Shown piece by piece: positions 10,936-34,341 of a stretch of 64,000 nt of DNA. Both the position numbers and the translations under genes were made by a program. Numbering within the stretch: position 1 is the stretch's first letter; every line of letters begins with the position of its first letter. This DNA comes from an uncultured Candidatus Saccharibacteria bacterium. Lineage in GTDB: Bacteria > Patescibacteriota > Minisyncoccia > Phycocordibacterales > JAKFXT01. The notes under the pieces were generated by a model. It did not search any database. It was not told the DNA's origin and saw only the letters and a list, made by a program, of their open reading frames with translations. The stretch covers positions 4,986 to 68,985 of the forward strand of contig CAYLPX010000004.1 in NCBI GenBank assembly GCA_964385825.1. The letters are read 5' to 3'.

Positions 10936-11084
10936 TGTACTTGTTGACCCAGTTAGGCATAATAAACGCGAGGTATTTTTATTGGACGAAATAGTACCCG
11001 AAAGGGGCGGTCTGCCAACTATCCGTTCAATCCTCGCGATTGCCTATAGCTGGGTCAACCAGACCGTCCCTTTCGGGTTTTTAT

Positions 11085-12695
11085 ATGAATACAGATAAAA
11101 CAAAAATTAAATACTTTCTCTATGCTCGGAAATCGTCCGAGAGTGAGGACAGACAAGTCCAATCAATCGGCGACCAAACAGACCGCATTACAAAACTTGC
11201 GGAAGACGAAAAGTTGGATGTTTTTGAAATCCTCTCGGAAGCTAAGTCAGCGAAAAATCCAAACAATCGTCCTATTTTTGACAAAATGCTTGAGCGGATT
11301 GAAAAAGGAGAAGCGAACGGCATTTTATGTTGGGAAATCAATCGTCTTTCACGCAATCCAGTTGATAGCGGAAAAATACAGTGGCTATTACAACAAGGAA
11401 TTATAAAATCAATCAGAACTATAAATCGTGAGTACAAACCAGACGATAATGCTCTACTTTTGAGTGTTGAGAGTGGGTCAGCTAATCAATTTATTCTGGA
11501 CTTAAAGAAAGGGGTAAAGAGAGGTATTGATAGCAAACTTGAAAAAGGGATGGCTCCTATAATGGCACCTCTTGGATACCTCAATACAAAGATAGAAATA
11601 CGCGGTGAGAATTACATTACAAAAGACCCAGAACGTTTCGCTATCTTGCGCAGAATGTGGGATATGATGCTTACAGGAAACTTTACTCCACCAAAGATAC
11701 GCGACATTGCAAATAATGAGTGGGGCTTACGAACACGCAAGATGAGACGAAGAGGTTCAAAGCCAATTTCCCGAAGTACCATTTATCGCATTTTCACAGA
11801 CCCATTCTATATAGGACTTTTTCAATACGGCGGAAAAACATATCAAGGAAAACATGAAGCGATGGTTACACTTGAAGAATATGACCGAGTGCAAATACTT
11901 CTTGGCAGAGAAGGCAGACCACGACCAAAGGTACACGAGTTTCCTTATACTGGCGTTATACGATGTGGCGAGTGCGGAAGTATGATTACTGCGATTGAAA
12001 AAACAAAGATAATAAAAAAGACGGGGGAACTAAAAACGTTTACTTACTATTATTGCTCCCGCAAAAAAGAAGGTGTGCCGTGTACACAGAATGTATACGT
12101 GAATGGTGAATTGATGAGTGAGCAAATTGAACGAGAAGTTATGAAGATTTCTATTCTGCCCGATTTCAAAAACTGGGCTTTGGAAATCCTAAACCAAAGC
12201 AACGATAAAGAAGTTGACGAGAGAGCCAAAGTATACGAAACGCAACAAAAAGCTCTTGCGGAAACTCAACGTCAACTGGATACGCTAACTAAGATGCGTT
12301 ATCGCGAACTTATTGATGACAACTCATTTATAAAAGAACGAGACGAACTAAAGGCAACAATCACCACACTCAAAAAGAACTTGCTTGAAACCGAAAGCCG
12401 AGCCGACAAGTGGTTAGAACTTACGGAAAAGACCTTTGTATTTGCCCTCTACGCACATAGCTCATTCCTAAACGGCGACATCCAAACCAAAAAAGAGATA
12501 CTTATGGCACTTGGGCAGAACTACACGCTAAAAGACCAAAAACTCGTTATAGTGCCTAACGAATGGCTGAAACCAATCATTGAACAGTATCCAGCGATGG
12601 AAAAAGAATATAAACGGCAAGAACTGAAAAATAACAAGAAACCATATAGACAAAAAGACGCTTTCGCGTCTCTTCGTCCCTTACTGCGCGGCTGA
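11085..12695 (+). CDS. large serine recombinase (resolvase N-domain + recombinase domain + zinc ribbon)
   Basis: YARKSSESEDRQVQSIGDQ catalytic-Ser N-terminus, ILCWEINRLSRN, and a CGECGS...YYYCSRKK zinc ribbon. The stop TGA lies inside the att repeat and the ORF overlaps the tRNA-Asp 3' end by 9 nt. Confidence 0.85.
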   Translation: MNTDKTKIKYFLYARKSSESEDRQVQSIGDQTDRITKLAEDEKLDVFEILSEAKSAKNPNNRPIFDKMLERIEKGEANGILCWEINRLSRNPVDSGKIQWLLQQGIIKSIRTINREYKPDDNALLLSVESGSANQFILDLKKGVKRGIDSKLEKGMAPIMAPLGYLNTKIEIRGENYITKDPERFAILRRMWDMMLTGNFTPPKIRDIANNEWGLRTRKMRRRGSKPISRSTIYRIFTDPFYIGLFQYGGKTYQGKHEAMVTLEEYDRVQILLGREGRPRPKVHEFPYTGVIRCGECGSMITAIEKTKIIKKTGELKTFTYYYCSRKKEGVPCTQNVYVNGELMSEQIEREVMKISILPDFKNWALEILNQSNDKEVDERAKVYETQQKALAETQRQLDTLTKMRYRELIDDNSFIKERDELKATITTLKKNLLETESRADKWLELTEKTFVFALYAHSSFLNGDIQTKKEILMALGQNYTLKDQKLVIVPNEWLKPIIEQYPAMEKEYKRQELKNNKKPYRQKDAFASLRPLLRG

Positions 12696-12705
12696 CCGGA
12701 CTTGA
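12685..12705 (+). repeat. attR-like 21-bp direct repeat (the genuine 3' end of tRNA-Asp)
   Basis: Identical to 3338-3358. Confidence 0.8.
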
Positions 12706-12760
12706 ACCGGCAACCTCTCGCGTGACAGGCGAGTGCTCTAACCAGTTGAGCTACAACCGC
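12687..12760 (-). tRNA. tRNA-Asp (anticodon GUC)
   Basis: GCGGTTG TA GCTC AACTGGTT AGAGC A CTCGC CTGTCAC GCGAG AGGTT GCCGG TTCAAGT CCGGT CAGCCGC G. CCA is not encoded. Confidence 0.85.
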
Positions 12761-12797
12761 ATTTTTTTCCGAATGCCCTATGCTTTCGCATAGCTCG

Positions 12798-12871
12798 GGT
12801 GCCGATGGGTGGAATCGGACCACCGTTTAGGGCTTATGAGTCCCTCGTTCTAACCATTGAACTACACCGGC
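12798..12871 (-). tRNA. tRNA with CAU anticodon (elongator Met or Ile2) and an unusual T-loop
   Basis: GCCGGTG TA GTTC AATGGTT AGAAC G AGGGA CTCATAA GCCCT AAAC GGTGG TCCGATT CCACC CATCGGC A. G1-C72 pairs, so it is not an initiator. The T-loop has C at position 55 and there is one A-G mismatch in the anticodon stem. Confidence 0.6.
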
Positions 12872-12967
12872 AAAGTAAAACAAAACTAACACGAAAATGG
12901 GGATAATTCAATTGGGCGGCTCAGCGACAAGCACTCGCTCCGCTCGTCTTGTATACCGCTTCCGTCT

Positions 12968-13081
12968 TGCAAGTCCAGTCGTAAAAAGCCTTAGCTTTTT
13001 ACTCCTCTCCGCAACAAGTATGTAAAATGCCTTCATGTTATGAAGGCATTTTACATACTTGTTGCGGGGGCTGGACTTGCA
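12968..13081. repeat. nested palindromic structure: an 11-bp outer inverted repeat enclosing a 9-bp hairpin and a 28-bp perfect hairpin
   Basis: TGCAAGTCCAG (12968-12978) pairs with CTGGACTTGCA (13071-13081). Inside are GTAAAAAGC-CTTA-GCTTTTTAC (12982-13003) and the 59-nt perfect hairpin at 13009-13067, with 28-bp arms and a 3-nt loop (arms CCGCAACAAGTATGTAAAATGCCTTCAT/ATGAAGGCATTTTACATACTTGTTGCGG). Confidence 0.8.
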
Positions 13082-13140
13082 CCAACATCTCAAGGTTATG
13101 AGCCTTACGAATTACTATTACTCTACCCCGCTATATGTGA
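13069..13140 (-). other. degenerate tRNA-like element (CAU anticodon stem-loop and T-arm intact; D-arm and acceptor not canonical)
   Basis: Revcomp is GCGGGGTAGAGTAATAGTAATTCG TAAGG CTCATAA CCTTG AGAT GTTGG TGCAAGT CCAGC CCCCGCAAC. Its T-arm forms one arm of the outer inverted repeat above. Confidence 0.4.
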
Positions 13141-13193
13141 GGACTCCCTCTTGAGAAGCCCATAGTAACAGAAAAGTGCGTTTTGGCAACCCT

Positions 13194-13814
13194 CTATATA
13201 TACTGAAACTCCCGAAACACCTCTTCGTATAGATTTAAAATATGTCGCATTTCACGCTCGGAAAGTTCAAATGAAGATCCCTCATGGGCTATGGCGTTAC
13301 GTGTACGATGGGCCTCCCAGGCCTTATCAATAGTCTTAAAATCTCCTCGATCAACCCTTTTCAAACGCTCGCCGAGCGTATCACCAAGTTCAGAAAAACG
13401 CTCATACACTAACTCATCTAGAATAATATCTGCCTCAAGTATGGCCAGTCTCCATTCATGGGGATTTTGCGAAGCCACGTGCCCTTGTACCTGCTGCCAC
13501 TTATGGAACCCTGGCGCAAAATTACTTTCTCCATGTGCCTCCAAACGATGCCAGTAATTATGCTCAGCATCGTGCATAGCTATATTTTCAGCAGTACGAA
13601 TCTGATACAACCTAAATAAGCTGTAGAAAATAGCAATAAGAAGAAAAATGGAAGCGCAGGTAGAAACAAAAGCAAAAGTAAGGTACGCGTTTTTCCAAAC
13701 CGCTACTATTTCTTCTTTGTGTGCGAGAGCGTCACTTCCACCTGTAGTGAAAAGACCGTAAATCCACACAAAAATAGATTCAATATCGAGGGACGGAACA
13801 TTGGTAATTTCCAT
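13194..13814 (-). CDS. membrane-anchored protein with a C-terminal DUF4145/HEPN-like domain
   Basis: Two TM helices, then a C-terminal region with the R-x4-H motif (HRTRNAIAHEG) that is diagnostic of the HEPN/DUF4145 fold. Confidence 0.4.
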   Translation of the reverse strand: MEITNVPSLDIESIFVWIYGLFTTGGSDALAHKEEIVAVWKNAYLTFAFVSTCASIFLLIAIFYSLFRLYQIRTAENIAMHDAEHNYWHRLEAHGESNFAPGFHKWQQVQGHVASQNPHEWRLAILEADIILDELVYERFSELGDTLGERLKRVDRGDFKTIDKAWEAHRTRNAIAHEGSSFELSEREMRHILNLYEEVFREFQYI

Positions 13815-13833
13815 ACCCCTATTCTACCAAGAC

Positions 13834-15258
13834 TTAGGCCTCTCCGAGAAATTTTTTACCCATATCAAAAAGGGTAGTTTCAGTAAGTGGAGCTCCCATA
13901 AGTTGAACTCCGAGTGGAAGTTGCTTGCCAGCAATTGCAGCAAAGCCAGAGGGCACGGAAAGAGCGGGGATACCAGCGATGTTTGCAGGCGTCGTGAATA
14001 TATCAGCCAAGTACATAGTTACCGGATCGTCGATCTTCTCCCCTATTTTAAATGCTGGAGCTGGAGTTGTAGGAGTGAGGACCACATCAACCCCACTATC
14101 AAACACTTTTTTAAAATCTTGCTTAATAAGTTCTCGCACCTGAAGAGCTTTGTAGTAATATGCATCATAGTATCCTGCCGACAGCACGTAGGTACCAAGA
14201 AGAATGCGTCGTCGCACCTCCTGTCCGAAACCTTCGCCGCGTGACTTTTTGTAATCATCTAGCAGTGTCTCGCTTTCAACATGAAGTCCATAGCGTACTC
14301 CATCAAAACGTGCCAAGTTAGTAGAGCTCTCAGCTGGCATAATGATGTAATACACTGGCAACGAATAATCTATATTTGGCAATTCAATATCACGCACCTC
14401 ACAGCCAAGCGCTTTAAAGCGGTTAATCGCTTCTTTAAAATTAAGTAGCACCTCTTCACTCAATCCCTTTTCCAAAAAATGCCAAGGCACTCCGATAGTA
14501 TACGAACTTTTAACTTGTGCCTTTTCATACAGACTATCACTAAGTGAAGTGCTGTCTTGTGGATCTTCCCCCTTCAAAATATCAAAAAGTAGTTCTGCAT
14601 CCGCCACACTAGTAGTCATGGGACCAATCTGATCAAGCGAAGACCCCATCGCCATAAGACCAAAACGAGAAATAGCTCCATACGTTGGTTTAAGCCCCAC
14701 AAGTCCACAAAAACTAGCTGGCTGACGTACTGACCCACCCGTATCTGAACCAAGTGCAGCGAGGGCTCCGCCCATAGCAACAGCCGCGGCTGATCCGCCA
14801 GAGGATCCCCCTGAAACCCTTTCTCTATCATGTGGGTTCCGAGTCACACCGTAGGCAGAGTTCTCTGTTGAGCCACCCATGGCGAATTCGTCCATATTTG
14901 TCCGCCCGATAAAAATAGCTCCCTCAGCCTTTAGTTTCTTAATAGCAGTAGCGTCATACGTTGCAACATAATTTTCCAAAATCTTGGAGGAAGCCCCTGC
15001 ATGCTTCCCCTCAATTAAAATATTGTCTTTAATAGCAAGTGGTATACCCAAAAGGCGCCCCTTATTACCCTCTTTCCTCTTTTGATCAGCCTCTATAGCC
15101 TGCTCCCTTGCATCAGCAAAAACTTCTCGGTACGCATTAATATCCGGATTATCTTTAGCAAGTACCTCAAGGTACTGCTCCATGAGCGAAAGCGCAGTAA
15201 GGCTACCTCCTTCAAGTAAGGCTTTTGCTTCAGTAATTGTCTTAGGAATCGTGGCCAT
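13834..15258 (-). CDS. gatA: Asp-tRNA(Asn)/Glu-tRNA(Gln) amidotransferase subunit A
   Basis: Amidase signature GGSSGGSAAAVA and Ser-cisSer-Lys triad context. 474 aa. Confidence 0.9.
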   Translation of the reverse strand: MATIPKTITEAKALLEGGSLTALSLMEQYLEVLAKDNPDINAYREVFADAREQAIEADQKRKEGNKGRLLGIPLAIKDNILIEGKHAGASSKILENYVATYDATAIKKLKAEGAIFIGRTNMDEFAMGGSTENSAYGVTRNPHDRERVSGGSSGGSAAAVAMGGALAALGSDTGGSVRQPASFCGLVGLKPTYGAISRFGLMAMGSSLDQIGPMTTSVADAELLFDILKGEDPQDSTSLSDSLYEKAQVKSSYTIGVPWHFLEKGLSEEVLLNFKEAINRFKALGCEVRDIELPNIDYSLPVYYIIMPAESSTNLARFDGVRYGLHVESETLLDDYKKSRGEGFGQEVRRRILLGTYVLSAGYYDAYYYKALQVRELIKQDFKKVFDSGVDVVLTPTTPAPAFKIGEKIDDPVTMYLADIFTTPANIAGIPALSVPSGFAAIAGKQLPLGVQLMGAPLTETTLFDMGKKFLGEA

Positions 15259-15261
15259 GGT

Positions 15262-15546
15262 TTACAATATTTTTTTCACTACCACATAGGATTCCCTACG
15301 CCGTGGGGCCTGTCCCACAATAGCCTCTGTATAAAGTCCTGCTTCATGGGGGTCAGTATCGTCCCGTAATACATTTTTAGGGATAATAGTATCTGTTATG
15401 GTAACCTCCGCACTTGGGGCATTTTGTAACATAGAAATATAGGCCACGATAGACTCAATGTCCTTGCGTAGTTTTTCCTTTTCCCCCTCTTCTATGTGCA
15501 ACCTTGAAAGGAGTGCTATTTTATCTAGTTCTTTTGGATCAATCAT
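15262..15546 (-). CDS. gatC: amidotransferase subunit C
   Basis: 94-aa protein immediately upstream of gatA with GatC-like MIDPKELDKIALLSRLHIEEGE. Confidence 0.75.
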   Translation of the reverse strand: MIDPKELDKIALLSRLHIEEGEKEKLRKDIESIVAYISMLQNAPSAEVTITDTIIPKNVLRDDTDPHEAGLYTEAIVGQAPRRRESYVVVKKIL

Positions 15547-15596
15547 TGTGGGCTATCATAGCGTACTTCAAAATATCTCGCTAGCTAGACCTCTAC

Positions 15597-17627
<2,031 letters not shown>

Positions 17628-17660
17628 TTAGCGAATTCAGAGACTAAGTGCCAGAAAGGA

Positions 17661-18206: not shown

Positions 18207-18207
18207 A

Positions 18208-18828: not shown

Positions 18829-19462
18829 GGTTACGCTGTGTAGCTCGTGTTTGAATTGCGAAATTTACGCGACGAGGATCACCACTCGCTGCGGAAGTTA
18901 CAAAAGCATAACCAGAAAGATTTATACGAACACTGGCTTGAATCTTATCGCCATTACCTGATCCCTGGAGGTCAAAATTAAGAAATTGAATTTTAATTTC
19001 AGGGGCAGTAATAGGCGCAAACACGCAGTTACCACTTGCTGGATCCTGCCTACATCGAAGTACTGTATTGTTAGTAGCATCAAACGCGTACGCAATAACA
19101 GGATTAGGAAAGGCTGCATTAGTAACATCATCTGACTTAAAAGCGAGGAGATTTCCGCCGACTGGATTCGCACAATTGTTAGGATTTGTTCCGCCAGTAT
19201 AGATAGAACCCGCAACGTAAGTTGCTCCTACTTCACAATGATAACTAGTTCCCGTACGAATATTGCGCACCATACTTTCCATAGTAGAACTTAAGTTATT
19301 AATAGCTGATTGTTGTGCCTGCGACTTTTTGTTTAAATTCACAATAGAAAGTAGTGCCCCCGTTGCTATAAACATAACGACCGCAAAAAGGCCGACCGCC
19401 ACAATGAGCTCAGCTAACGTAAAACCTCTTTGTTGTAACTGTTTACTCCACATACCTAACAA
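18818..19462 (-). CDS. prepilin-type minor pilin
   Basis: RGFTLAELIVAVGLFAVV prepilin signature. Confidence 0.65.
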   Translation of the reverse strand: MLGMWSKQLQQRGFTLAELIVAVGLFAVVMFIATGALLSIVNLNKKSQAQQSAINNLSSTMESMVRNIRTGTSYHCEVGATYVAGSIYTGGTNPNNCANPVGGNLLAFKSDDVTNAAFPNPVIAYAFDATNNTVLRCRQDPASGNCVFAPITAPEIKIQFLNFDLQGSGNGDKIQASVRINLSGYAFVTSAASGDPRRVNFAIQTRATQRNLDI

Positions 19463-20109
19463 TTACCACCCGACTTAACGGAAGTCTGTCCAATACTATT
19501 AATTATCACGCACCGGGACTCTGAAGCGCTTGAATCAGCTTTTAATACAATTTTAATACTTGAAATGCCGGCTATGTTCGTAGTGTTTTTAAACACCAGC
19601 GGTTCTGGGTTCGGGCGCCTAAAAATAATAGTAGCCTTATCGTACGTACCCACCGTGTTGCACTGATATGCTCCCCCATTAATAGAGAAGCAGATATCTG
19701 AGATACGTATATCGCGTACAAAAGTAGAAGTGGTCATAATTTCAGAAACATCATAGTTAGAGTCACTGTTTACATCAGCAAAGAGCGTAAAGCTTTTAGA
19801 ATTTGCCTTATCAAAATACATGCCATACCCGATCTGGTATGCAGTCCTACCACTGACTGTTGCTCCCTCAGTACCAAAGGCACCTATAGTTACTTTGCGT
19901 GAAGCCACACCGAACACCTGTGCCTGGCGGATAGTAAGCGCCACCTCATAAGCAGAGTTAGTAAGAAGAATGCTGGAATTAAACTTAGAGTTCTGATAGA
20001 GCACCACTGACGTAATAATCATAAAAATAGAGACCGTCACCATAAGCTCAACTAAGGTAAAAGCCTTTTTGTCTTTGTATGTGCGAAACATGGTTAGTGG
20101 TAGGTGCAT
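19456..20109 (-). CDS. prepilin-type minor pilin
   Basis: KAFTLVELMVTVSIFMII prepilin signature. Confidence 0.65.
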   Translation of the reverse strand: MHLPLTMFRTYKDKKAFTLVELMVTVSIFMIITSVVLYQNSKFNSSILLTNSAYEVALTIRQAQVFGVASRKVTIGAFGTEGATVSGRTAYQIGYGMYFDKANSKSFTLFADVNSDSNYDVSEIMTTSTFVRDIRISDICFSINGGAYQCNTVGTYDKATIIFRRPNPEPLVFKNTTNIAGISSIKIVLKADSSASESRCVIINSIGQTSVKSGGNC

Positions 20110-20118
20110 ATATACTAA

Positions 20119-20955
20119 CTAAAACCCAAGCGCATGAAGCGAGAAAATATCTAGCGGGTAGAAAAATACTAGTATCGTTGCACCAATAAGGAATGGCGCA
20201 AAGGGTACCTCACTTTTCATTGTAAGGTGTAAGCCCTGTAAGAACAAGAAAGATATCCTCCTTTTCTCACTTAGTTTAGCTAGGCCAAGAAAAGCAAGTG
20301 TCACAATCGCACCAACCCAAAAAGCTATAGCAAAAGCCGAGAGGCCTCCTGCAATTCCCAATAAGAATCCCATGCCAATGGCAAGTTTCCCATCCCCAAG
20401 TCCGATCAGCCGGCCGTTTGAAAAAAACCAGAGCAAGAAGAAGGGTAGGAAAAAGAGTGGACCAGCTATAAGCTGATCGTATTGCACAATAAAATCATAT
20501 CCACCACGATAAAAATAAACATTCCAAAGTGCTAACAATAAAGTTAGGCCATTAAAGGTCCAGACAAGTCCATCGGGTATTATTTTGTGCCGAATATCGT
20601 ACACAGTAATAACAATAAGAATCGGAAATATAATGAAATATAGTGGGGCAGTAAAAAGTGAAAAGCTGTGATAGGCCTCCCAAGCAAGCACATAAAAAAG
20701 AATCCCTGTTACAAGTTCAACCAAGGGGTACTGCCAAGAAATTTTGGCATGACAATTACTACATTTGCCTTGTAAAACTAAGAAGCTAAAGAGGGGAAAA
20801 AGCTCCCAAAAATGTAATATTTTGCCACAGGTAAAACATTGGGAGCGACCAGAAAAGAAAGACAGTCCAGTCCCGTAACGGAGTATGACCACATTAAGAA
20901 AGCTCCCCACACAAAGCCCGAGTGCAAAAAAGAATATATAGTAGATCGAAAGCAT
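20119..20955 (-). CDS. pilD: type IV prepilin peptidase (A24 family)
   Basis: N-terminal CxxC...CxxC zinc knuckle (CFTCGK...CSNCHAK), polytopic membrane protein, conserved Asp-containing motifs. 278 aa. Confidence 0.85.
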   Translation of the reverse strand: MLSIYYIFFFALGLCVGSFLNVVILRYGTGLSFFSGRSQCFTCGKILHFWELFPLFSFLVLQGKCSNCHAKISWQYPLVELVTGILFYVLAWEAYHSFSLFTAPLYFIIFPILIVITVYDIRHKIIPDGLVWTFNGLTLLLALWNVYFYRGGYDFIVQYDQLIAGPLFFLPFFLLWFFSNGRLIGLGDGKLAIGMGFLLGIAGGLSAFAIAFWVGAIVTLAFLGLAKLSEKRRISFLFLQGLHLTMKSEVPFAPFLIGATILVFFYPLDIFSLHALGF

Positions 20956-21010
20956 TGCCCTAAGTATAACCTTTAACCAACTACAAAAGAATATCTGTAA
21001 AAAAACAAAA

Positions 21011-21042
21011 ACCGAAGGGAATCCTTCGGTTTTTGTTTTTTT
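21011..21042. terminator. bidirectional rho-independent terminator between pilD and the pilin array
   Basis: ACCGAAGG-GAAT-CCTTCGGT stem followed by TTTTTGTTTTTTT and preceded by AAAAACAAAA. Confidence 0.75.
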
Positions 21043-21053
21043 AGACTTGAAGT

Positions 21054-21509
21054 TTAATCACAGACAGGCCCAGTTGGTCTATGATCAAGTGCAACCCCCT
21101 TACTTGACTCATCAACACACCAGAACTGTGCAGGATCCGTTTTAAGCGGCACTGCGATAGCATATGCTGAGTCAGTAATCTTACATGTCGCATCCCCCCC
21201 ACCACTCTTAGCCACCGCATCACCAATAGCACTACTTATATTTACCTGTTCTAGAATTGTATTGGCAGTTGTAAGTCCATTACAGGTATCAGTATCAACA
21301 TCAGTCCCTGATTTATTATAGGTGTTACCCATCTCATCGTACTTAAGAGTAGCAGAAGCCCGAATCCCTTCTAAGTTTGATTTAATATTAGCGTCAGCTC
21401 CCTTGTCACGCGCAGAATTAAGTGCAGAAAGTATAACCTGAGAAAGAATGCCAATAATAGCTATAACCACTAACAGCTCAATAAGTGTAAAACCTCTTCT
21501 CGAAGACAT
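21054..21509 (-). CDS. type IV major pilin paralog 1
   Basis: RRGFTLIELLVVIAIIGILS canonical prepilin leader plus N-terminal helix. 151 aa. Confidence 0.8.
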   Translation of the reverse strand: MSSRRGFTLIELLVVIAIIGILSQVILSALNSARDKGADANIKSNLEGIRASATLKYDEMGNTYNKSGTDVDTDTCNGLTTANTILEQVNISSAIGDAVAKSGGGDATCKITDSAYAIAVPLKTDPAQFWCVDESSKGVALDHRPTGPVCD

Positions 21510-21528
21510 ACTTCTAGATAATTAATTA

Positions 21529-21987
21529 TTAAGGGCAAAAAGTCTGGTTAGCAGGTATATAAGTAGTACCATTATTTCTAGAAACACCTGTACTGTCCAC
21601 ACACCATACATTTGTAGTATTGGACTTAAGTGGAGCCTCAGCTGCCCAAGCCCCCCCAGCATCATGACAAGTAGCAGTGCTTGCTCCACCCCCCACACCT
21701 ATAGCAATATTCATGCCAGCTCCAGTAACATTAGCCGCCGCCCGAAGCATGTTATTAATAGATTTAACGCCCCCAACCACTACTGCTGTACAAACAGTAC
21801 TGTAACTATTGCCATTAACATTATAGAAAAGCTCAGCTTGAGAACGAAGCGAAGCCATCTGACTTTTTACCGCCCCATCACCCCCCTTACCACGAGCATT
21901 ATTTAAGGCGCCCAAAACAATTGTGGACAATAACGTTATAATTGCCATAACCACCATCAACTCAATAAGCGTAAAGCCTCTATTCAT
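21529..21987 (-). CDS. type IV major pilin paralog 2
   Basis: NRGFTLIELMVVMAIITLLS. Confidence 0.8.
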   Translation of the reverse strand: MNRGFTLIELMVVMAIITLLSTIVLGALNNARGKGGDGAVKSQMASLRSQAELFYNVNGNSYSTVCTAVVVGGVKSINNMLRAAANVTGAGMNIAIGVGGGASTATCHDAGGAWAAEAPLKSNTTNVWCVDSTGVSRNNGTTYIPANQTFCP

Positions 21988-22032
21988 ATATTAAAAGTAT
22001 ACTACGTAGTACTAAAAAGGACTGTGGATAAA

Positions 22033-22509
22033 TTATGGACACTTATACTGATTAGTCCCCCCTGTTCCGTCTATGTTAACTGCACCGCTAGATTGAGAGA
22101 CACCTGAATTATCTACACACCACATAATGCTTGGATTGGACTTAAGAGGGGCTTCGGCTACCCAACTACCTACAGTGGCATGACAAGTCACTGTATTAGC
22201 CGCTCCAGCTGTTGCTGCGTTGGTAACAATGGATGAAGCTGTTATGTTAGCTGCTCCGACCAGCATAGTATAAATCCCCTTCGTGCCATTAGGGGCAGCT
22301 GCACCCAAATTACATACATTGGCGTAGCTGTTTCCGTTCGCATCATTATACAACTCGGCCTGTGACCTAAGGGTGGCCATTTGTCCCTTAATAGCAGAGT
22401 CAGCACTTTTGTTCCGAGCACTATTTAAAGATCCTAAAACTATTGTTGAGAGCAAAGTAATAATCGCAATAACCACAATAAGTTCTATGAGAGTAAAACC
22501 TTTCCGCAT
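22033..22509 (-). CDS. type IV major pilin paralog 3
   Basis: MRKGFTLIELIVVIAIITLLS. The start is moved to the internal Met that gives a normal prepilin leader. Confidence 0.75.
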   Translation of the reverse strand: MRKGFTLIELIVVIAIITLLSTIVLGSLNSARNKSADSAIKGQMATLRSQAELYNDANGNSYANVCNLGAAAPNGTKGIYTMLVGAANITASSIVTNAATAGAANTVTCHATVGSWVAEAPLKSNPSIMWCVDNSGVSQSSGAVNIDGTGGTNQYKCP

Positions 22510-22580
22510 AGAAAAATTATAACAGCTTATTAACCAGTAAAACAAGTTTTTAATGCACAGTGCTTTACTAAAAACAAAAA

Positions 22581-22605
22581 CTCCAAGCACATGCTTGGAG
22601 TTTTT
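22581..22605. terminator. rho-independent terminator between pilin paralogs
   Basis: CTCCAAGC-ACAT-GCTTGGAG stem followed by TTTTTGTT, with an A-run on the other side. Confidence 0.7.
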
Positions 22606-22625
22606 GTTACTAAACTAAGAAAAAT

Positions 22626-23129
22626 TTAGTTACAAGCAGCACCAGTGATAACACCAGTTACACCTGCCTGGTCTTGAGTAGCCATAGTCTCAGCCTTTGA
22701 AGCTCCAGTACTATCAGCACACCATGCCTGAAGAGCTGTCTTTGTAGGTACAGCCACAGCCCAAGCACCACCATTAACTGTTGCTGCACAAGAGTTGTAT
22801 GCAACACCCGAAGTAGTAATAGCAGCTTGGATCAAGCTATAAAACTTGGTATCAGCAAAAATAGTGTTTGCAGCTGCAGAACATACACCAGAAGCCTTAG
22901 CAACAGCAGCAGCACAAGTACCACCAGTTGCTACGTAACATTGTGGTGTGTCGTAAAGAATCTCGGCTTGAGCACGAAGACCAGCAAGCTGACTCTTAAT
23001 AGCAGCATCAGCACCCTTGTTACGAGCGGTGTTAAGACTAGCCAAAACTACTGAAGAGAGGATACCGATGATGGCAATAACCACCAAGAGTTCAATAAGG
23101 GTAAAACCTTTATTTGTTGTTTTTATCAT
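22626..23129 (-). CDS. type IV major pilin paralog 4
   Basis: NKGFTLIELLVVIAIIGILS. 167 aa. Confidence 0.8.
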   Translation of the reverse strand: MIKTTNKGFTLIELLVVIAIIGILSSVVLASLNTARNKGADAAIKSQLAGLRAQAEILYDTPQCYVATGGTCAAAVAKASGVCSAAANTIFADTKFYSLIQAAITTSGVAYNSCAATVNGGAWAVAVPTKTALQAWCADSTGASKAETMATQDQAGVTGVITGAACN

Positions 23130-24580: not shown

Positions 24581-24585
24581 AAGAA

Positions 24586-25704: not shown

Positions 25705-25712
25705 AATAAATA

Positions 25713-26102: not shown

Positions 26103-26127
26103 ATGAAGTATCTCTAGTATAACCTAC

Positions 26128-27864: not shown

Positions 27865-27891
27865 AATGAACGTAACTCACCCCCCGAAAGC

Positions 27892-28269: not shown

Positions 28270-28273
28270 ATAA

Positions 28274-28870
28274 TTAACGTAACCAATAGGTCTTAAGGGT
28301 CACACTGAAATCATAAAAATCAGTTTTATCAAGCGGTTTCATAGATACAATAGTAACATCTAGAAGACGCAAAGAACTTTCTAACTTCTTGATGAATTCC
28401 TTAAAGACATTGTACTGAGCCGTTACATTAAAACTGAGAGTAACACTACCTACAGTTTGGTCTCCTCCAATTGCAATTTCGCGGGAATCACCACTTCCTG
28501 ATGCTGTACTTCCTCCACCCTTACTGTCCCCACCGGTAAAACGTAGGTTCTTGAGTACCAACCCAAGTGGCTGAGCGATATTGTTAATATCAATAATAAG
28601 GCGGATGTTATCAATAGAGTCTGGAAGGAGTTTAGCGAGGTTTGCTAGCTGTGTAGCATCAATACTGTTCTTACTTGCTACTAGTTTATTCTTTGCATCA
28701 TTTAGTTGCTGCGACTTGTTGATAGCTTCATCATACTTAGCGATTTCCGCTTGGATGGCTTTAATACCAGGTTTTGCCGGATCTTCGCTAGTGTACAGTG
28801 GGTTAACTACAGTAAGGAAAAGCCCTACTGAGATAACTACCAACACGATTTGAAAAATAATATTGTTCAT
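28274..28870 (-). CDS. pilO: PilO-like pilus assembly protein
   Basis: N-terminal TM, coiled-coil, periplasmic domain. Size and position match PilO. Confidence 0.55.
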   Translation of the reverse strand: MNNIIFQIVLVVISVGLFLTVVNPLYTSEDPAKPGIKAIQAEIAKYDEAINKSQQLNDAKNKLVASKNSIDATQLANLAKLLPDSIDNIRLIIDINNIAQPLGLVLKNLRFTGGDSKGGGSTASGSGDSREIAIGGDQTVGSVTLSFNVTAQYNVFKEFIKKLESSLRLLDVTIVSMKPLDKTDFYDFSVTLKTYWLR

Positions 28871-28875
28871 AAAAT

Positions 28876-29604
28876 TTAGCGCGTAGTATTAGTTGGAGCG
28901 GGAATGGTAGGTGTTCCATCAGTAGTTGAACTGGCAGTTGTATTCTCTGGTGTAGCCTGTTTAATCGCAGCCCGCAGGTCATTAACGGCTCGGTAGCGCA
29001 AAACCCCTGGATCAATAAGCGCTGAAACGCTAAAAGTAATATTCCCCGCTTCGTTTAGGTTAATGTTAGAAAAAATTGGCTCCTTGATTCCCTTTGTTTT
29101 AGAGAGTAGATCTGACTGAAGCGCAACGCTGTTATAACTCTTAGCAATACCGTTCATTTTAAACTGTATACCCCCCGCTTCCCCTGCTGCACCAGAAGCA
29201 TCCCCTGCGTCACTATTGGCAGCTGAAGTTATATCAAAACTAGAATAACTAATAGTCTTAAGCGTAGCTTGCTGCAAAATATCAAACACGCCAGAAATTG
29301 CGATATGTTTATCAAGTAATCCCTTTGCGGTTTCTATACGAGTATCAAGACGCTTTAATTCCTTAATAGTATCAATATCAAATCCCTTACGCGCCTTTTC
29401 AAGAGTTTCCTTTTTACCAACGAGTACTCCGGTGAGGTAATTTTGATAAAAATACGAACCAGCTGAAAGCGCAATCGCCCCCAAAAAAAGAATAACCGTA
29501 ATAACCGTAACGACACTAACGCCACGGTGCTCATACGAGGAAGTTCCTTCTGAAGGAACAAGGGGTCGCTTTGGAATAAAAGATGTTTGAGCGTTTCCGT
29601 CCAT
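28876..29604 (-). CDS. pilN: PilN-like fimbrial assembly protein
   Basis: Bitopic protein with a TM helix at ~40 and a coiled-coil, immediately after pilM. Confidence 0.55.
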   Translation of the reverse strand: MDGNAQTSFIPKRPLVPSEGTSSYEHRGVSVVTVITVILFLGAIALSAGSYFYQNYLTGVLVGKKETLEKARKGFDIDTIKELKRLDTRIETAKGLLDKHIAISGVFDILQQATLKTISYSSFDITSAANSDAGDASGAAGEAGGIQFKMNGIAKSYNSVALQSDLLSKTKGIKEPIFSNINLNEAGNITFSVSALIDPGVLRYRAVNDLRAAIKQATPENTTASSTTDGTPTIPAPTNTTR

Positions 29605-29682
29605 TACTTATTAGTATAGCAACAAAATGCGAACTCTCTATAAAAAAAGGAGTGAATAACTCTATGCCAGAAATCAGAAGGG

Positions 29683-30843
29683 CTAATTGTTTGTGGAAAG
29701 TTTGCGCAAGGCTATTCCAACCGCCACGGCAAACTCCGGACCAACGATTTTTAGTGTCTGTGCCAAAAAAGCTGGAGCAACTGTCTTACTAAACGGATCT
29801 GCTGCTACCACACTAGCTTGGAAATGTACCTTGGCAGCTTCTGCGAATCCACGCATAACTGCCCCGCCACCACAGAGTACTACTTTAGAAATAGTTCGAT
29901 TGTACTTTTTCTCATAGCTAAGAAGCATTTGATTTGCTTCAGTGAAGACATAGTCAAGTGTGAAAGAAATACTATCACTCACCTGTCTATGAGCTGGGTC
30001 AGTTGAGAGACCGATGGTTCGCTTAGCCTCTTCAGCCTTTTCTACCGCCATACCGAGTGACTCAGCGATCGAGAGTGTGATGTCCTGCGAACCACGGTTA
30101 ATGATGTGTGAGTCTTTAATAATGCCATGCTCCACTAGGTAGAGTTTTGTGGAACCTGCCCCCATGTCTAAAATCATAACTGGTTCTATACCCTGATCGA
30201 GGGATGAACGAGTAGTACTGAAAAGCTCTATTTCATATACTGGGTCAACCAAATCTAGTTCTTGAACAATAGTACGATTTTTCTCAAGAGCATCATTAAG
30301 GATAGCAACAAGGAGCACGTTAACCTTTTTAACGGACTTGTCATTTTTGTCGTCTTTTGGCTTTTCACTTTCGGGACGCTCGCCAGGACTATGAAGCCCC
30401 GCATCTTCTTTCGGAATAATCCACCAATCAAGAGTTACTTCTGAGATAGCAACGGGAATATACCGACGAGCCTCAATCGGTATCATTTCAGCCATACGTT
30501 TTTCACCTAAGTCTGGCATTTCAACAAGTGAAGTGAGACTGGAGGAAAGTGGTATCGCAATGCCAACATCACGCGCTGTAATATTGGCCTCACGGAGTAA
30601 GTCACCGAGGGCTTCTTTGATCTTATCAGGTGGTAAGTTAGTGGCTCGTCCCAATTCAAGTCCAGCATAGGGGCCGAGCGCTATTTCTCCATAACTCTCG
30701 AGCACTGCTCGGTTAGCCTTTTTGCGGAGCTGCACAACCTTAATAGCTGAAGCCCCAATATCAATGCCAACCACACTACCCCCTCCTCCGCTATTTTTAA
30801 AAAGCCCACTTACTAGTTTTTTGAATGAAAAGTCTATAGCCAT
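29683..30843 (-). CDS. pilM: type IV pilus assembly protein PilM (actin-like ATPase fold)
   Basis: VGIDIGASAIKVVQL phosphate-1 motif and MILDMGAGSTKL phosphate-2. 386 aa. Confidence 0.85.
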   Translation of the reverse strand: MAIDFSFKKLVSGLFKNSGGGGSVVGIDIGASAIKVVQLRKKANRAVLESYGEIALGPYAGLELGRATNLPPDKIKEALGDLLREANITARDVGIAIPLSSSLTSLVEMPDLGEKRMAEMIPIEARRYIPVAISEVTLDWWIIPKEDAGLHSPGERPESEKPKDDKNDKSVKKVNVLLVAILNDALEKNRTIVQELDLVDPVYEIELFSTTRSSLDQGIEPVMILDMGAGSTKLYLVEHGIIKDSHIINRGSQDITLSIAESLGMAVEKAEEAKRTIGLSTDPAHRQVSDSISFTLDYVFTEANQMLLSYEKKYNRTISKVVLCGGGAVMRGFAEAAKVHFQASVVAADPFSKTVAPAFLAQTLKIVGPEFAVAVGIALRKLSTNN

Positions 30844-30891
30844 GCGACAAAATTACTGCGAAAATATGACTACAGTATAGCATAAGGCCCT

Positions 30892-31560
30892 ATGAAGGAT
30901 TTATTAAGCAAAGTGGTACTCGTGGGTAAAAGTACTTCGGAAGTACTGATCAATTTTGTTTTTCCACGAAGAGAAAGTGCTGCCCTTTTCGTGGCACTAA
31001 CTGAAACTGATATTGCTAAGCGGGCAAAACACTCTGAAAGCTCGTTTGCCCTCTTTGACTATCACGACCCACTTATTCACAGTCTCATCTGGCATGCCAA
31101 ATACAAGGGAGATGCTTTGGCTATCGAGCTGATTGGAGGGCTCATGCGAAACAACCTCTATGAAGAGATCTCCGAGCGACTAGCTTTCAACGGAGGTGGT
31201 AAGGCCCTACTTATTCCGATTCCAGAAAGCAAGAAACGTCATCTTGAAAAGGGATTCAATCAAGTGGCGCTCATTGGGGAGGTTATAGCGGCAAAAGAGG
31301 GTAAAGAAATTTTTGAGCTTAACACCACCCTTTTAAAGCGGCAAAAGGAGGTGGTGCGTCAAACCGATCTTAAAAAGCGCACAGAGCGCCTCAAAAATAT
31401 GAAGGATGTGTTCACCGTAACTGACCCTGCCGTACTAAAAGACCGTGTAGTTGTTTTGATAGATGATGTGACCACAACCGGTGCCACACTTAACGAAGCT
31501 AGAAAAGTGCTAGAAAAATGTAAGCCAGCCCACATAGAAGTACTGGCCTTCGCGCATTAG
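30892..31560 (+). CDS. comFC: ComF-family phosphoribosyltransferase-like competence protein
   Basis: C-terminal PRTase motif VVLIDDVTTTGATLNEA. 222 aa. Confidence 0.6.
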   Translation: MKDLLSKVVLVGKSTSEVLINFVFPRRESAALFVALTETDIAKRAKHSESSFALFDYHDPLIHSLIWHAKYKGDALAIELIGGLMRNNLYEEISERLAFNGGGKALLIPIPESKKRHLEKGFNQVALIGEVIAAKEGKEIFELNTTLLKRQKEVVRQTDLKKRTERLKNMKDVFTVTDPAVLKDRVVVLIDDVTTTGATLNEARKVLEKCKPAHIEVLAFAH

Positions 31561-31563
31561 AAC

Positions 31564-32388
31564 TTATTTTGCGTAAGCTTCCTTTTCAGCTTGTATTATC
31601 TTTATTTGCTCTGCCGCACTCACTCGCACTCCTGCCGAAGCGTCAGTGGCCATAACTGTTTTAGCTAATGCTTGGGCATCACTATTACCAGTTGCTAAAG
31701 CCCCATCTACGGTAACCACAACAAAATTAGAGTGAGTTATGGGGATAATGACATTAGCCCCGAAACGCTGTGAACCATAGAACAGCGGGAGGCCTCCCAT
31801 AGTAGTGTGTGAAATATCAGCTGGCCTTGGCCCTTCAGGAACCCCATCGCTTGGATAAGGATACTCAAGCATCCATATCTTTTGTTTTGTATCAAAATAA
31901 TAATGCATAACATTACAAACAGGGCAGGCTCCTACTCCACTACTATCAACGATAGAAAATTCTGGTGAAACTACTTCCTCTATGAAAATTCGCTTTGATC
32001 CATCGGTTACCACCAACTTCTTTTTAATCTTCCCGCCCGGTATCCCCATAGCCTCTGCATACTTATTATCCAAATCTCCTATCTCTGTCATGTTTGTGGG
32101 CTTCACTTCTTTGACCTGCCAAGTACTAGGGTAAGCGAAAGAAAAACCAAAGTCAGTGTCAGTATAAATATTCATACCAGCAACTGATGAGGTGCTTATA
32201 TTAGCCTCAGGAACTAGAACATCTGTGGGTGTATTAATGGTCTCTGTTTTTATAGTTTGGACAGTCAACTGCTCATTACTTGTTTTTAAAGATCGCGCAT
32301 ACAAAGTGGCAATTGCTCCCAGTACAAGTAGGACCAGAACCGTGGTTAACAAAATCTTACTCACAAACATTCCTTTTTGGTAATTCAT
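31564..32388 (-). CDS. hypothetical secreted protein
   Basis: N-terminal TM/signal anchor. No motif. Confidence 0.4.
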   Translation of the reverse strand: MNYQKGMFVSKILLTTVLVLLVLGAIATLYARSLKTSNEQLTVQTIKTETINTPTDVLVPEANISTSSVAGMNIYTDTDFGFSFAYPSTWQVKEVKPTNMTEIGDLDNKYAEAMGIPGGKIKKKLVVTDGSKRIFIEEVVSPEFSIVDSSGVGACPVCNVMHYYFDTKQKIWMLEYPYPSDGVPEGPRPADISHTTMGGLPLFYGSQRFGANVIIPITHSNFVVVTVDGALATGNSDAQALAKTVMATDASAGVRVSAAEQIKIIQAEKEAYAK

Positions 32389-32545
32389 AGATACAAAGTA
32401 AGTAACTTATAGTAACAATACAACACCTATTTGTTTTATAAAAGGAAACCAACCCCTCTTTGAAAGAGCCAATTTTTGGTGTAAAGTGGCCAAGTAAATT
32501 ACGTTTGGAGACATGGTTATATACGCCACGTCTCCGATGAAATAC

Positions 32546-32633
32546 GGAGACGTGGCTGAGTGGTCGAAAGCACCTCACTGCTAACGAGGCGTCCCTTTAA
32601 AGGACCGTGGGTTCGAATCCCACCGTCTCCGCA
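32546..32633 (+). tRNA. tRNA-Ser (anticodon GCU), long variable arm
   Basis: GGAGACG TG GCTGAGTGGTCGAAAGC A CCTCA CTGCTAA CGAGG CGTCCCTTTAAAGGACC GTGGG TTCGAAT CCCAC CGTCTCC G. Type-II variable arm. CCA not encoded. Confidence 0.85.
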
Positions 32634-34341
32634 AACTTGGAATATCTACCGCAAAAGGTAGATATTCTGCTTTATTAGAGCCATCATTTTTAGGTTCGAA
32701 CGCTTTTGTCGTGTTCGGGTATCTCACTGCTATCGCTGCGTAGAGATCGAGCGGATTCCTCAAGGAAATACTCAACTTTTTATCTTTTAGGATTATGTTC
32801 GATCGCGATAGTGATGCGAAGATGTCTCGCTTCTGTTCAGGAGCACCTTCTTCAAACCACAATCGTGCTGCTGTGGCGAAACTGAATGAGTTCTCGGCCC
32901 AGTCCACCCACTCGTCGATCTTGCGTCCGGTATTTTGCCGTGAAGCCTCAATCGCATGCTTTTCATCCATAAGCACTTTTCGTTGTGGCGTGTATTCCTC
33001 AAGAGATAGCAAAGACTGATCTGCGTTTTCCGGTGATGTGTAGAGTCGTGTGAGATTTTGGAGTTGCTGCACGATATCCTTGTAGCGCTTTTCCTGCACG
33101 TCGATTGTTACGTTTTGGTTTTTGATTTGCTGATCGTTATCTTTTGCAAGTTCTTCCAATGCCCATTTCGTAAATGCGCTAGAGAGTTCTATTTTTGAGA
33201 GAGCGGAATCGAGAAGAAATTCAAGATCTTCGGCTCGGACCGATGTTTGCGTACACTTTGGATTTTTACGCTTTGTACAGTGATAATAAACATAATGTAG
33301 CGTGGTTGGATTCACCATATCCGCGATCTTTCTTTTACACTTGGGGCAGGCGTCTTTATTTGGAGAGGCGAACTTATGTTTGCATGAATCACAGATGATC
33401 TGATGTTTTTCTTCTGCTGTAACCATTGAGCCGCATTCGCCGCACTCCGTTCTGCCTGTGAATGGAAAGAAGTGACCGTTGCGAGGGTGTGCTTTTCCTT
33501 TGCGACCCAGTTTCTGCTGTATAAGTTCAAATTGATCCATCGTGATCATCGGCTCATGCGCTCCTTTCACCAATTCCTTCTCACCGGTGTCATGATTCCG
33601 TGCCTCAAAGTATCCAGTGTAAAAGGGTTCGGTAAGTAAGCGATAGATGCCCGCCATGGATACTATTTTGCCGCCTTGCCGTTTTGTTTGCCGCGTTCGC
33701 AAGCCCCACTTCTTCGCTTGAAGATAGAGTTGTCGCACCGAATAGTGCCCGGCAAGATATTCCTCGAAGATCCGCTTCACTAGATCAAATCGCTCGGGAT
33801 CTGGAACGATTGTTTTCTCTCCCTTGAGAGTGTGGATATTGTTGAGATAGCCGATCGGTGCAACTCCATTTCTCCACCCTTGCAGCGTTTTTGCACGGAG
33901 TCCTCTCTTCACGTTCGTGCTCAAATCGCGGATGTACTGATTTGCCATGCCGAACTCGAGCGAGGCAAGAAGCACGTTGTCCTCCGGATAGTAATCGCGT
34001 TCGACTGTTTTGATGTGTTGGATGATACCTTTTTGAAGCATCCAACTTATGCGTCCGGCATCAACCGGATTGCGGGCGAGACGATCCATCTTCCAACAGA
34101 TAATGCCTCGCGCTTCACCTTTCTCGATCCGATCGAGTACGTCATTGAAGACCTTTCGTCCCGGGGCCTTCGCTGACATTGACTCAAAAAGAGGTTCACC
34201 GACTATCTTCAGATTGAGTCGCTTTGCTAGTTTTTTGAGTTCATCAATCTGCGAAGACAAACTCAAAACCTGCCGATCCTCGTCCTCCGTGGACTTTCGG
34301 CAGTAGATGAAGTATTTCAGATTTGGATTTGCTGTTTTCAT
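32581..34341 (-). CDS. large serine recombinase (homolog of the island 1 recombinase); ORF overlaps ~50 nt of tRNA-Ser
   Basis: YCRKSTEDEDRQVLSLSSQ, IICWKMDRLARNPVDAGRISWMLQKGI, a CGECGS zinc ribbon, and a second Cys cluster CDSCKHKF...CPKCKRK. 586 aa. Confidence 0.85.
   Translation of the reverse strand: MKTANPNLKYFIYCRKSTEDEDRQVLSLSSQIDELKKLAKRLNLKIVGEPLFESMSAKAPGRKVFNDVLDRIEKGEARGIICWKMDRLARNPVDAGRISWMLQKGIIQHIKTVERDYYPEDNVLLASLEFGMANQYIRDLSTNVKRGLRAKTLQGWRNGVAPIGYLNNIHTLKGEKTIVPDPERFDLVKRIFEEYLAGHYSVRQLYLQAKKWGLRTRQTKRQGGKIVSMAGIYRLLTEPFYTGYFEARNHDTGEKELVKGAHEPMITMDQFELIQQKLGRKGKAHPRNGHFFPFTGRTECGECGSMVTAEEKHQIICDSCKHKFASPNKDACPKCKRKIADMVNPTTLHYVYYHCTKRKNPKCTQTSVRAEDLEFLLDSALSKIELSSAFTKWALEELAKDNDQQIKNQNVTIDVQEKRYKDIVQQLQNLTRLYTSPENADQSLLSLEEYTPQRKVLMDEKHAIEASRQNTGRKIDEWVDWAENSFSFATAARLWFEEGAPEQKRDIFASLSRSNIILKDKKLSISLRNPLDLYAAIAVRYPNTTKAFEPKNDGSNKAEYLPFAVDIPSLRRRWDSNPRSFKGTPR

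Follow-up and report, generated by a model that had tools for sequence, protein, structure and literature searches.

Introduction

The integrases that classically target tRNA genes are tyrosine recombinases. A stretch of 64,000 nucleotides (nt) from an uncultured Candidatus Saccharibacteria bacterium (contig CAYLPX010000004.1 of GenBank assembly GCA_964385825.1, positions 4,986 to 68,985 of the forward strand), hereafter called the window, contains two genes for large serine recombinases (LSRs), LSR1 and LSR2, each of which runs into the 3' end of a different tRNA gene, and this raises the question of how the open reading frame (ORF) of a serine integrase comes to end within a tRNA gene. The analysis presented here shows that adjacency to tRNA genes is a property of a large clade to which both recombinases belong. 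From the sequences of the two islands and of their relatives we consider it probable (roughly 0.7) that, in both islands, the attachment site of the element (attP) lies inside the integrase ORF and that crossover takes place at the extreme 3' end of the tRNA gene. All positions are those of the window unless a related locus is named, and the features are collected in Table 1.

Two related recombinases that end inside tRNA genes

Both recombinases are full length and contain the Resolvase, Recombinase and Zn_ribbon_recom domains above the Pfam cut-offs: the resolvase catalytic domain PF00239 (E=3.5e-17 and 2.7e-18), in which Y10, R15, K16 and S17 are invariant across 22 relatives, is followed by PF07508 and then by the PF13408 zinc ribbon, with C294, C297, C324 and C333 likewise invariant in 22 relatives. 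Aligned end to end, LSR1 and LSR2 share 36% identity (350 bits, E=1e-118), whereas comparison with solved or curated LSRs gives E~1e-4 to 1e-21 overall. The best matches among solved structures are SPbeta SprA and the TP901-1 integrase (E~1e-4) and a conjugative-transposon recombinase (E=4e-6), and the best NCBIfam matches, XisF and CcrB, score ~74-89 bits against family cut-offs of 375-900. Judged by these scores, the two resemble each other far more closely than they do arbitrary LSRs. A first-pass annotation had noticed extended identity and a zinc ribbon in both proteins; alignment and domain assignment uphold the two points, and the pair is not as distant as random members of the type. 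By analogy with the LSR family, LSR1 and LSR2 are predicted to integrate by recombining attP with the host attachment site (attB), and excision would be expected to involve a directionality factor.

The adjoining genes, tRNA-Asp(GTC) and tRNA-Ser(GCT), are both convergent with the recombinase gene beside them. The stop codon of LSR1, TGA (12693-12695), lies 9 nt inside tRNA-Asp, within the acceptor stem (3' strand). The LSR2 ORF traverses the acceptor, T and variable arms of tRNA-Ser, and its stop codon TAG (32581-32583) coincides with C35-T36-A37 of the anticodon loop. The earlier statement that the ORFs end in the acceptor or T-arm is thus accurate for LSR1 and has to be revised for LSR2, which goes farther, as far as the anticodon loop; its last 14 codons would be antisense host tRNA. 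The codons antisense to tRNA with which the ORFs close were most likely gained from the host by integration and do not belong to the element, whose own C-terminal codons sit at the far ends of the islands (see below). Immediately ahead of the tRNA end, most relatives have the codon TGG (Trp), which is antisense to an encoded CCA. In place of CCA the two window elements bring CAG or CAA, and therefore neither of their target tRNA genes (ends at 12686 and 32632) has an encoded CCA.

tRNA association across the clade

A profile of LSR1 and LSR2 retrieved more than 4088 relatives at E<=1e-20, which, where the source is named, come mostly from Paceibacterota, Parcubacteria and similar groups. We scanned 80 related loci from other genomes, taken from one-genome-per-species contigs with flanks of <=10 kb, for tRNA genes with ARAGORN. 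Among 76 complete LSR ORFs, 55 terminate inside a convergent tRNA gene, a count that is a lower bound since ARAGORN overlooks interrupted tRNA genes: at least seven further ORFs adjoin tRNA ends that the program missed (at contig ends or in interrupted genes such as a tRNA-Asp in locus L203), which brings the number to ~62/76 by eye. The same overlap occurs in 4 of 56 distant LSRs (<28% identity) used as a control. The targets comprise 16 kinds of tRNA, with Asn (16) and His (12) most frequent, then Asp, Gln, Trp, Ser, Pro, Tyr, Lys, Ala, Ile and Arg, and the arrangement is also present in proviral contigs of IMG/VR. As a separate observation, the tRNA-Asp genes of L203 (11601-11700), L192, L193 and L197 have an apparent insertion right at the anticodon, with the common sequence ...GGCGTGGACTATATCTT....

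It might be argued that the ORFs simply continue until the neighbouring tRNA DNA offers a stop codon, and that the adjacency is meaningless. Indeed, the position of the stop varies from 9 to 180 nt into the tRNA across the survey, giving a new tail of 1 to ~60 codons, as would be seen for an unselected tail. This explanation deserves next to no credence and is contradicted by the survey, in view of the difference between at least 55/76 relatives and 4/56 distant LSRs, of the frame of ORF entry relative to nt 73, which is identical in 50 of the 55 loci and in both window genes, and of the conserved terminator and core described below. tRNA adjacency is a property of a large clade, chance being excluded by the family survey and its controls. 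These counts, together with the differing cargo of the islands, support the first-pass reading of one tRNA-targeting integrative family with modular cargo, whose members do stand next to many other tRNA genes.

A tRNA terminator embedded in the integrase gene

In an anchored alignment a covarying palindrome (e.g. GAGGC-TTTT-GCCTC or GACGC-TTTC-GCGTC) follows an A-run, 12-45 nt before the tRNA end; on the tRNA strand it constitutes a hairpin plus U-run beginning ~11-13 nt past the tRNA. An intrinsic-terminator-like element of this kind is found in 40 of 57 loci, whereas control windows placed within these ORFs have it in 14 of 285 cases, and a consensus scan places one for each of the two target tRNAs within the coding sequence of the convergent recombinase (Table 1). 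Given the palindrome and A-run at the ORF end, the conserved LSR peptide K.K.EAFAS.R.. is, at least in part, the antisense of the tRNA terminator.

Short cores and detached C-terminal tails

The short core at the recombinase side of each island recurs at the far side, where it is followed by an ORF that keeps the integrase frame and encodes LVDDVRTGFESRNDATIYIPNFKSLELS (island 1) or RELDAVRTYFHTVGAWEAFPDFSTV (island 2), each closed by a stop codon. The same core with an in-frame (D/E)xVRT ORF stands at the far end of seven elements, namely both islands and loci L199, L203, L054, L087 and L098, the repeated cores being 6-10 nt long and made up of tRNA trailer and nt 73-71. Family members that do not adjoin a tRNA naturally end in the (D/E)xVRT tail, and among the 120 best database relatives 39 have this tail and 52 a tRNA-antisense one. 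When joined in silico, the ORFs amount to 564 residues (LSR1) and 596 residues (LSR2) and match database proteins with joined tails; P0022 (...LRPILRGLVDDVRTEV...) and P0025 (...LVNEVRTAFERQNDATIYIPSFNL) match the joined LSR1, and their contigs (L205 and L206) carry the joined sequence, the core flanked by its two arms (P and P'). Homologues of the LSR1 tail occur in P0022, P0025, L054 and L203. The tail ORF of LSR2 overlaps the 3' end of the convergent OLD-like nuclease gene by 49 nt (43311-43359). The view that the sequence after this gene is merely the gene's own flank was rejected, as L199 has no OLD-like gene and keeps the in-frame LSR tail.

Comparison of close relatives marks the same border from the integrase side. 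Within the 90%-identity cluster of LSR2 the C-termini differ immediately past ...PSLR. The LSR2-like elements of the window, L199 and L201 (79-87% nt identity) occupy genes for tRNA-Ser(GCT) or tRNA-Ser(TGA), each with an acceptor stem of its own (three in all), and their common sequence stops at TTTGCGG; L073 and L085, which are 93% identical, part 4 nt into tRNA-Asn. The P' arm in all seven elements contains a T-loop-like TT(A/C)GAAC that lies 4-5 nt farther from the core than the real T-loop. By analogy, this displacement would resemble the wider attP as compared with attB half-sites of A118-type integrases; for the A118 integrase Rutherford et al. 2013 reportedly found attP half-sites ~5 bp wider. 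A scan of viral sequences for the P' motif gave 0 matches.

Proposed mode of integration

The anatomy, the family-wide association and the fixed frame are observed, as are terminators, cores and in-frame tails; from them we infer the exact crossover and the roles of the two arms as follows. The attB of this large, mainly Patescibacteria-associated clade would be the 3' end of a tRNA gene, and crossover would occur in the 6-10-bp core formed by the tRNA trailer (or CCA) and nt 73-71. The body of the tRNA would remain host-derived, the element swapping the trailer and bringing a new intrinsic terminator; that the host keeps its own tRNA body would, on this model, account for the acceptor stems, which pair 7/7 in all 55 survey loci. 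The attP would fall inside the integrase ORF, ~25-30 codons short of its end, with the conserved C-terminal coding stretch and its antisense terminator as the P arm, and as the P' arm the sequence that encodes the conserved (D/E)xVRT... tail and holds TT(A/C)GAAC. Integration would carry the last 24-28 codons off to the opposite border of the island and fuse the ORF, in a fixed frame, to antisense tRNA; how long the new tail becomes would be set solely by the first stop codon found there. The predicted core-to-core junctions are attP1 CCCTTACTGCGCGGACTAGTGGATGATG and attB1 GGGGATTTGCTTGCGCGGCTGACCGGACTTGAACC for island 1, and attP2 ATTCCAAGTTTGCGGCGAGAGTTAGATGCTG and attB2 GGATTCGAATCCCACCGTCTCCGCAAAGTCTTGAGTG for island 2.

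Several observations weigh against crossover in the core. The far-side core and tail were found within 10 kb in just 3 of the 55 survey loci. The palindromy between P and P' was not significant in a simple alignment test, and the likeness of P' to tRNA is mostly confined to TT(A/C)GAAC, which may be conserved for protein reasons. No empty attB or excised attP of either island was found in contigs with identical flanking proteins, and a metagenome scan for a 21-nt repeat of island 1 gave only tRNA-Asp genes of other organisms, with no empty or circular junction. This repeat itself, in which 3338-3358 is identical to 12685-12705 (blastn-short, E=1.3e-6), extends beyond the core, and repeats of 18 nt in L199 and of 17 nt (1 mismatch) in L053 also end in the T-loop. 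Finally, units of ~155-175 nt between the outer repeats and the far-side cores are not accounted for by the core model. The outer repeat of island 1 came to light with blastn-short, after a 23-mer search for displaced tRNA fragments allowing <=3 mismatches had given nothing.

These repeats are the basis of an alternative in which crossover occurs in the T-loop, at ~nt 57-58, so that island 1 spans 3359..12705 and recombines between the outer tRNA-fragment repeats; the element would then supply tRNA nt 58-73 with trailer and terminator, and the inner core with its (D/E)xVRT ORF would be a relic or accessory site. The repeats of island 1, L199 and L053 all end after the fourth T-loop base, and in L199 the far copy has a host-type CCA and the LSR-side copy an element-type CAA trailer, both of which agree with this alternative. 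We nevertheless regard it as unlikely. It needs an acceptor 3' strand matched to the host, and elements 79-87% identical sit in three different acceptor stems, all paired 7/7; it leaves unexplained the conserved in-frame tails and the many joined-tail database proteins; and a repeat ended in the T-loop occurs within 10 kb in just 1 of the 55 survey loci. The far-end cores and their in-frame tails therefore lead us to prefer crossover in the core.

Composition of the outer units

Both outer units contain an inverted copy of the target tRNA 3' end, split at nt 65/66, and then a terminator-like hairpin. The copy of tRNA-Asp in island 1 is cut by a 25-nt hairpin (3438-3449 / 3450-3474 / 3475-3485) and precedes the terminator-like hairpin at 3487-3512; the copy of tRNA-Ser in island 2 is split by a hairpin of the same length (43416-43427 / 43428-43452 / 43453-43464). 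The island 2 unit also includes the conserved stretch CTTTGCGA..GCTCCG, which island 1 has too, and, at 43541-43557, a decayed tRNA-like fragment with terminal CCA. CCA is kept in this outer fragment (43555-43557) and in that of L199. The layout of the units is repeated in L203, where it is matched to that locus's own T-arm, and in part in L199; a profile hidden Markov model and a sequence pattern for the far-end module did not detect it in other loci. In L053 the far end (2650-2737) carries tRNA-His sequence in direct orientation that extends from the anticodon to the 3' end and whose T-loop is broken by a 46-nt hairpin-forming insertion.

Earlier insertions at the same tRNA may have left the outer units behind as remnants; tandem arrays do occur in L073, L075 and L098. 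In L098, at tRNA-Asn, there are three copies of the far-side core and tail (57, 1420 and 4264), and in both L073 and L075 the first LSR is separated from tRNA-Asn by a second, distantly related LSR element. Alternatively, the units may have a function as a module, such as that of a 3' structure which becomes part of the integrase mRNA in one state only.

Are the islands still mobile?

The window belongs to NODE_40 of ENA record ERZ4216102. The look-ups of flanking proteins returned occupied sites throughout, together with some chimeric contigs (L005 and L010). The failure to find an empty site or a circular junction agrees with a reading in which the islands are fossils and the LSR genes are remnants, or domesticated recombinases, fixed beside tRNAs; the decayed outer tRNA fragment of island 2 and the lack of the conserved C-terminal tail in both integrated ORFs point the same way. 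This reading is nonetheless quite improbable in our judgement: both ORFs are intact and full length with their catalytic and zinc-ribbon residues conserved, the cores and in-frame tails are intact, and close relatives stand in different tRNA genes with different cargo. Many metagenome contigs also break at the junctions, which is suggestive only. The intact ORFs, cores and tails, the relatives in other tRNAs with other cargo and the joined forms in public assemblies suggest that the islands may be mobile today.

Island content and companion genes

With the cores as borders, island 1 extends over ~3514..12691 (9.2 kb) and island 2 over ~32629..43395 (10.8 kb); within island 1 the GC content falls to 35-39% over ~4-11 kb. 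The first-pass annotation had contrasted metal resistance with defense as cargo, and the assignments agree with it, copper genes in island 1 standing against a type III restriction-modification system and an OLD-like nuclease in island 2 (Table 1). In the close relative L199 the cargo consists of two C5 methylases and an HNH protein. The C-terminal part of the 426-residue protein of island 1 is weakly similar to an island 2 protein (35592-36152; E=3e-4). The LOOT RNA of island 2 lies between a 186-residue gene and the restriction genes and overlaps the start of a probably spurious ORF of 179 residues; island 1 has no counterpart at E<=1.

The small proteins of the two islands are homologous, as had been proposed, with 32% identity over 65 residues (E=7e-8). 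They had been taken for shared cargo, a view that is not maintained by the survey: the family is present in 45 of the 80 loci, in 43 of them on the LSR strand, at a median of 1.6 kb upstream. DUF5659 is found in 19 relative loci, directly upstream of the 66-residue gene in the examples listed. The 66-residue gene, with DUF5659, is therefore a core module of the elements, a companion of the integrase and not cargo. Its product has no Pfam, NCBIfam or PHROG match; the structural model is a confident three-helix fold (predicted local distance difference test, pLDDT, 89.7) with no significant match in the PDB, and we would guess at a candidate directionality factor or regulator. The LSR1-like island of L203 encodes an FtsK/SpoIIIE-type translocase and a sigma-70 region-4 protein (2226-3599); by analogy with actinomycete integrative elements, this hints that some members may transfer as double-stranded DNA.

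Table 1. Features of the two islands and of their target tRNA genes, in window coordinates
Feature	Position	Strand	Remarks
Outer 21-nt direct repeat TGCGCGGCTGACCGGACTTGA	3338..3358		Island 1; repeats tRNA-Asp from the T-loop to nt 73, + 2 nt (3' end)
Outer unit of ~155 nt	3359..3513	+	Island 1; fold -89.7 kcal/mol, z=-6.2
Putative P' arm and detached LSR1 C-terminal extension LRGLVDDVRTGFESRNDATIYIPNFKSLELS, then stop	3513..3608	+	Island 1; in frame with LSR-side core
Far-side core TGCGCGG	3514..3520		Island 1; predicted crossover region of the left attachment site (attL)
Cupredoxin-like protein	3621-4103	-	Island 1 cargo (whole block 3621..7629)
DsbD_2-HMA protein	4036-5055	-	Island 1 cargo
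CopA P-type ATPase	5058-7349	-	Island 1 cargo
CsoR-type repressor	7354-7629	-	Island 1 cargo
426-residue protein	7750..9030	+	Island 1; function not assigned
DUF5659 protein	9206..9496	+	Island 1; directly upstream of 66-residue gene
66-residue three-helix protein	9501..9701	+	Island 1; LSR companion
395- and 57-residue proteins	9748..11098	+	Upstream of LSR1; no function assigned
LSR1	11085..12695	+	536 residues as integrated; ORF from 11040/11085
Terminator-like hairpin + U-run for tRNA-Asp	12648..12679	-	Antisense in last LSR1 codons; consensus scan
LSR-side core TGCGCGG	12685..12691		Island 1; 2-nt trailer + tRNA nt 73-69; predicted crossover region of the right attachment site (attR)
tRNA-Asp(GTC)	12686..12760	-	Island 1 target; ARAGORN, Rfam
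tRNA-Ser(GCT)	32546..32632	+	Island 2 target; ARAGORN, Rfam
LSR2	32581..34341	-	586 residues as integrated
LSR-side core CCGCAAA	32629..32635		Island 2; tRNA nt 71-73 + trailer
Terminator-like hairpin for tRNA-Ser	32638..32669	+	Within LSR2 ORF, opposite strand; consensus scan
109-residue protein and replication-initiation O-like protein	34338..35200	-	Island 2; O-like protein 34664-35200 (phrog_9773, E=1e-25)
67-residue homologue of the 66-residue protein	35185..35388	-	Island 2
LOOT RNA (RF03000)	36174..36294	+	Island 2; 69.7 bits, gathering score 46.4
Type III restriction Res	36777-39257	-	Island 2 cargo (whole block 36777..43359, also with a 155-residue protein)
Type III Mod	39261-40871	-	Island 2 cargo
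HTH_17 protein	40822-41007	-	Island 2 cargo
OLD-like AAA_15/TOPRIM nuclease	41413-43359	+	Island 2 cargo
Putative P' arm and detached LSR2 C-terminal extension TLRRELDAVRTYFHTVGAWEAFPDFSTV, then stop	43311..43397	-	Island 2; homologous tail in L199
Far-side core CCGCAAA	43389..43395		Island 2
Outer unit	43396..43557		Island 2

Other features of the window

Just outside island 2, a 40-nt direct repeat (43554-43593 and 43986-44025, 90% identical), with a T-run, TATATACT and ATG, flanks a 432-bp segment with one small gene and may be a duplicated promoter or leader, or a small cassette insertion. An apparent tRNA gene at 399-668 (minus strand) is split by an insertion of ~200 nt; its 3' half (399-438) resembles the neighbouring tRNA-Thr, and ~640-668 looks like a 5' end with acceptor and D-arm. 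Neither ARAGORN nor Rfam calls it, and the insertion gave no match to an intron family of Rfam. Next to a prepilin peptidase and type IV pilus assembly genes there is an array of six pilin-like genes (19399-23112, minus strand) that have a conserved segment (N_methyl) at the N-terminus. A tRNA-Ile gene with anticodon TAT (46995-47068, plus strand) directly follows recG; GC is 33-37% in 47000-48000 and 50000-59000, as against ~42-47% elsewhere, and the low-GC stretch that begins right after this tRNA could be another acquired region.

Discussion

The window elements share features with several known systems and differ from each of them. The LSRs of phages and of integrative and conjugative elements (phiC31, Bxb1, A118/LI, TP901-1, SPbeta SprA, CcrA/B, XisF) have the same resolvase, recombinase and zinc-ribbon domains and likewise a gene at the very edge of the island. 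The short common core between the sites of the window elements, and their P' motif displaced by 4-5 bp relative to attB, may be further points of resemblance, with the arm palindromy not significant and longer repeats ended in the T-loop also present. The window LSRs are only remotely similar to them (E~1e-4 to 1e-21, far under curated cut-offs), are directed at a tRNA 3' end and not at a protein-coding gene or intergenic site, and apparently have their attP within the integrase ORF, the end of which is also the tRNA terminator. In SSV1-type (fusellovirus) integrases, which target a tRNA gene and have their attP in the int gene, integration partitions the integrase ORF. This is the arrangement that the window elements would share with an attP inside their integrase gene; unlike the archaeal-virus tyrosine recombinase, whose ORF is deeply split, the bacterial serine recombinase would lose its last ~25-30 codons only and gain tRNA-antisense codons. 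Islands of the Islander type or P4-like tyrosine islands, which sit in tRNA or tmRNA genes, likewise combine cargo with an integrase that adjoins an intact, still functional tRNA gene. Their signature, a displaced tRNA fragment, is fully present in island 1 as the 21-nt repeat at both ends, and island 2 has just a decayed fragment and a 7-nt core; the window integrases are serine and not tyrosine recombinases, and their crossover would lie at the extreme 3' terminus, in a 6-10-bp core as opposed to a long restored segment.

Tycheposons and cryptic tRNA-adjacent elements, as far as they are described in the passages considered here, are also modular cargo islands beside tRNA genes, and 27 of 937 elements in Prochlorococcus are stated to encode an LSR (bioRxiv 10.1101/2020.12.28.424599); the passages on 'serine' in this preprint describe no ORF-tRNA overlap, attP within an ORF or embedded terminator. 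According to the authors of Islander (Hudson et al., PMC4383910), serine integrases were not known to use tRNA genes, and the large survey of LSRs and attachment sites by Durrant et al. 2022 (PMC10083194) nowhere mentions tRNA. Literature searches gave no description of tRNA-targeting LSRs in Patescibacteria. LSR islands and tRNA islands are thus each well known, and their combination is not established. What appears to be new is a clade of serine integrases specialised on tRNA 3' termini, with a putative attP in the ORF and a predicted terminator within the coding sequence.

The exchange of C-termini could in addition serve as a built-in sensor of the integration state, with directionality encoded in the gene architecture, although we put this forward tentatively and consider it doubtful. 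The full-length enzyme with its (D/E)xVRT...IYIP tail would exist on the excised element only and drive integration; the integrated form, truncated or tRNA-tailed, head-on to the tRNA and devoid of its own terminator, would be silenced or switched towards excision. In this reading the clade would also recognise the universally conserved T-arm and 3' end of tRNAs, for which almost any genome would offer natural landing sites.

Such a clade, with thousands of LSRs at tRNA 3' ends, would fill a gap in our view of how the small-genome Patescibacteria gain genes for defence and resistance. In its compact layout a single stretch of DNA would be at once the C-terminus of the integrase, the terminator of the tRNA and an arm of the attachment site, and it is suggested that the state of integration could alter the enzyme itself. 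As candidate integrases with highly conserved targets, these recombinases may also be of practical interest for genome engineering.

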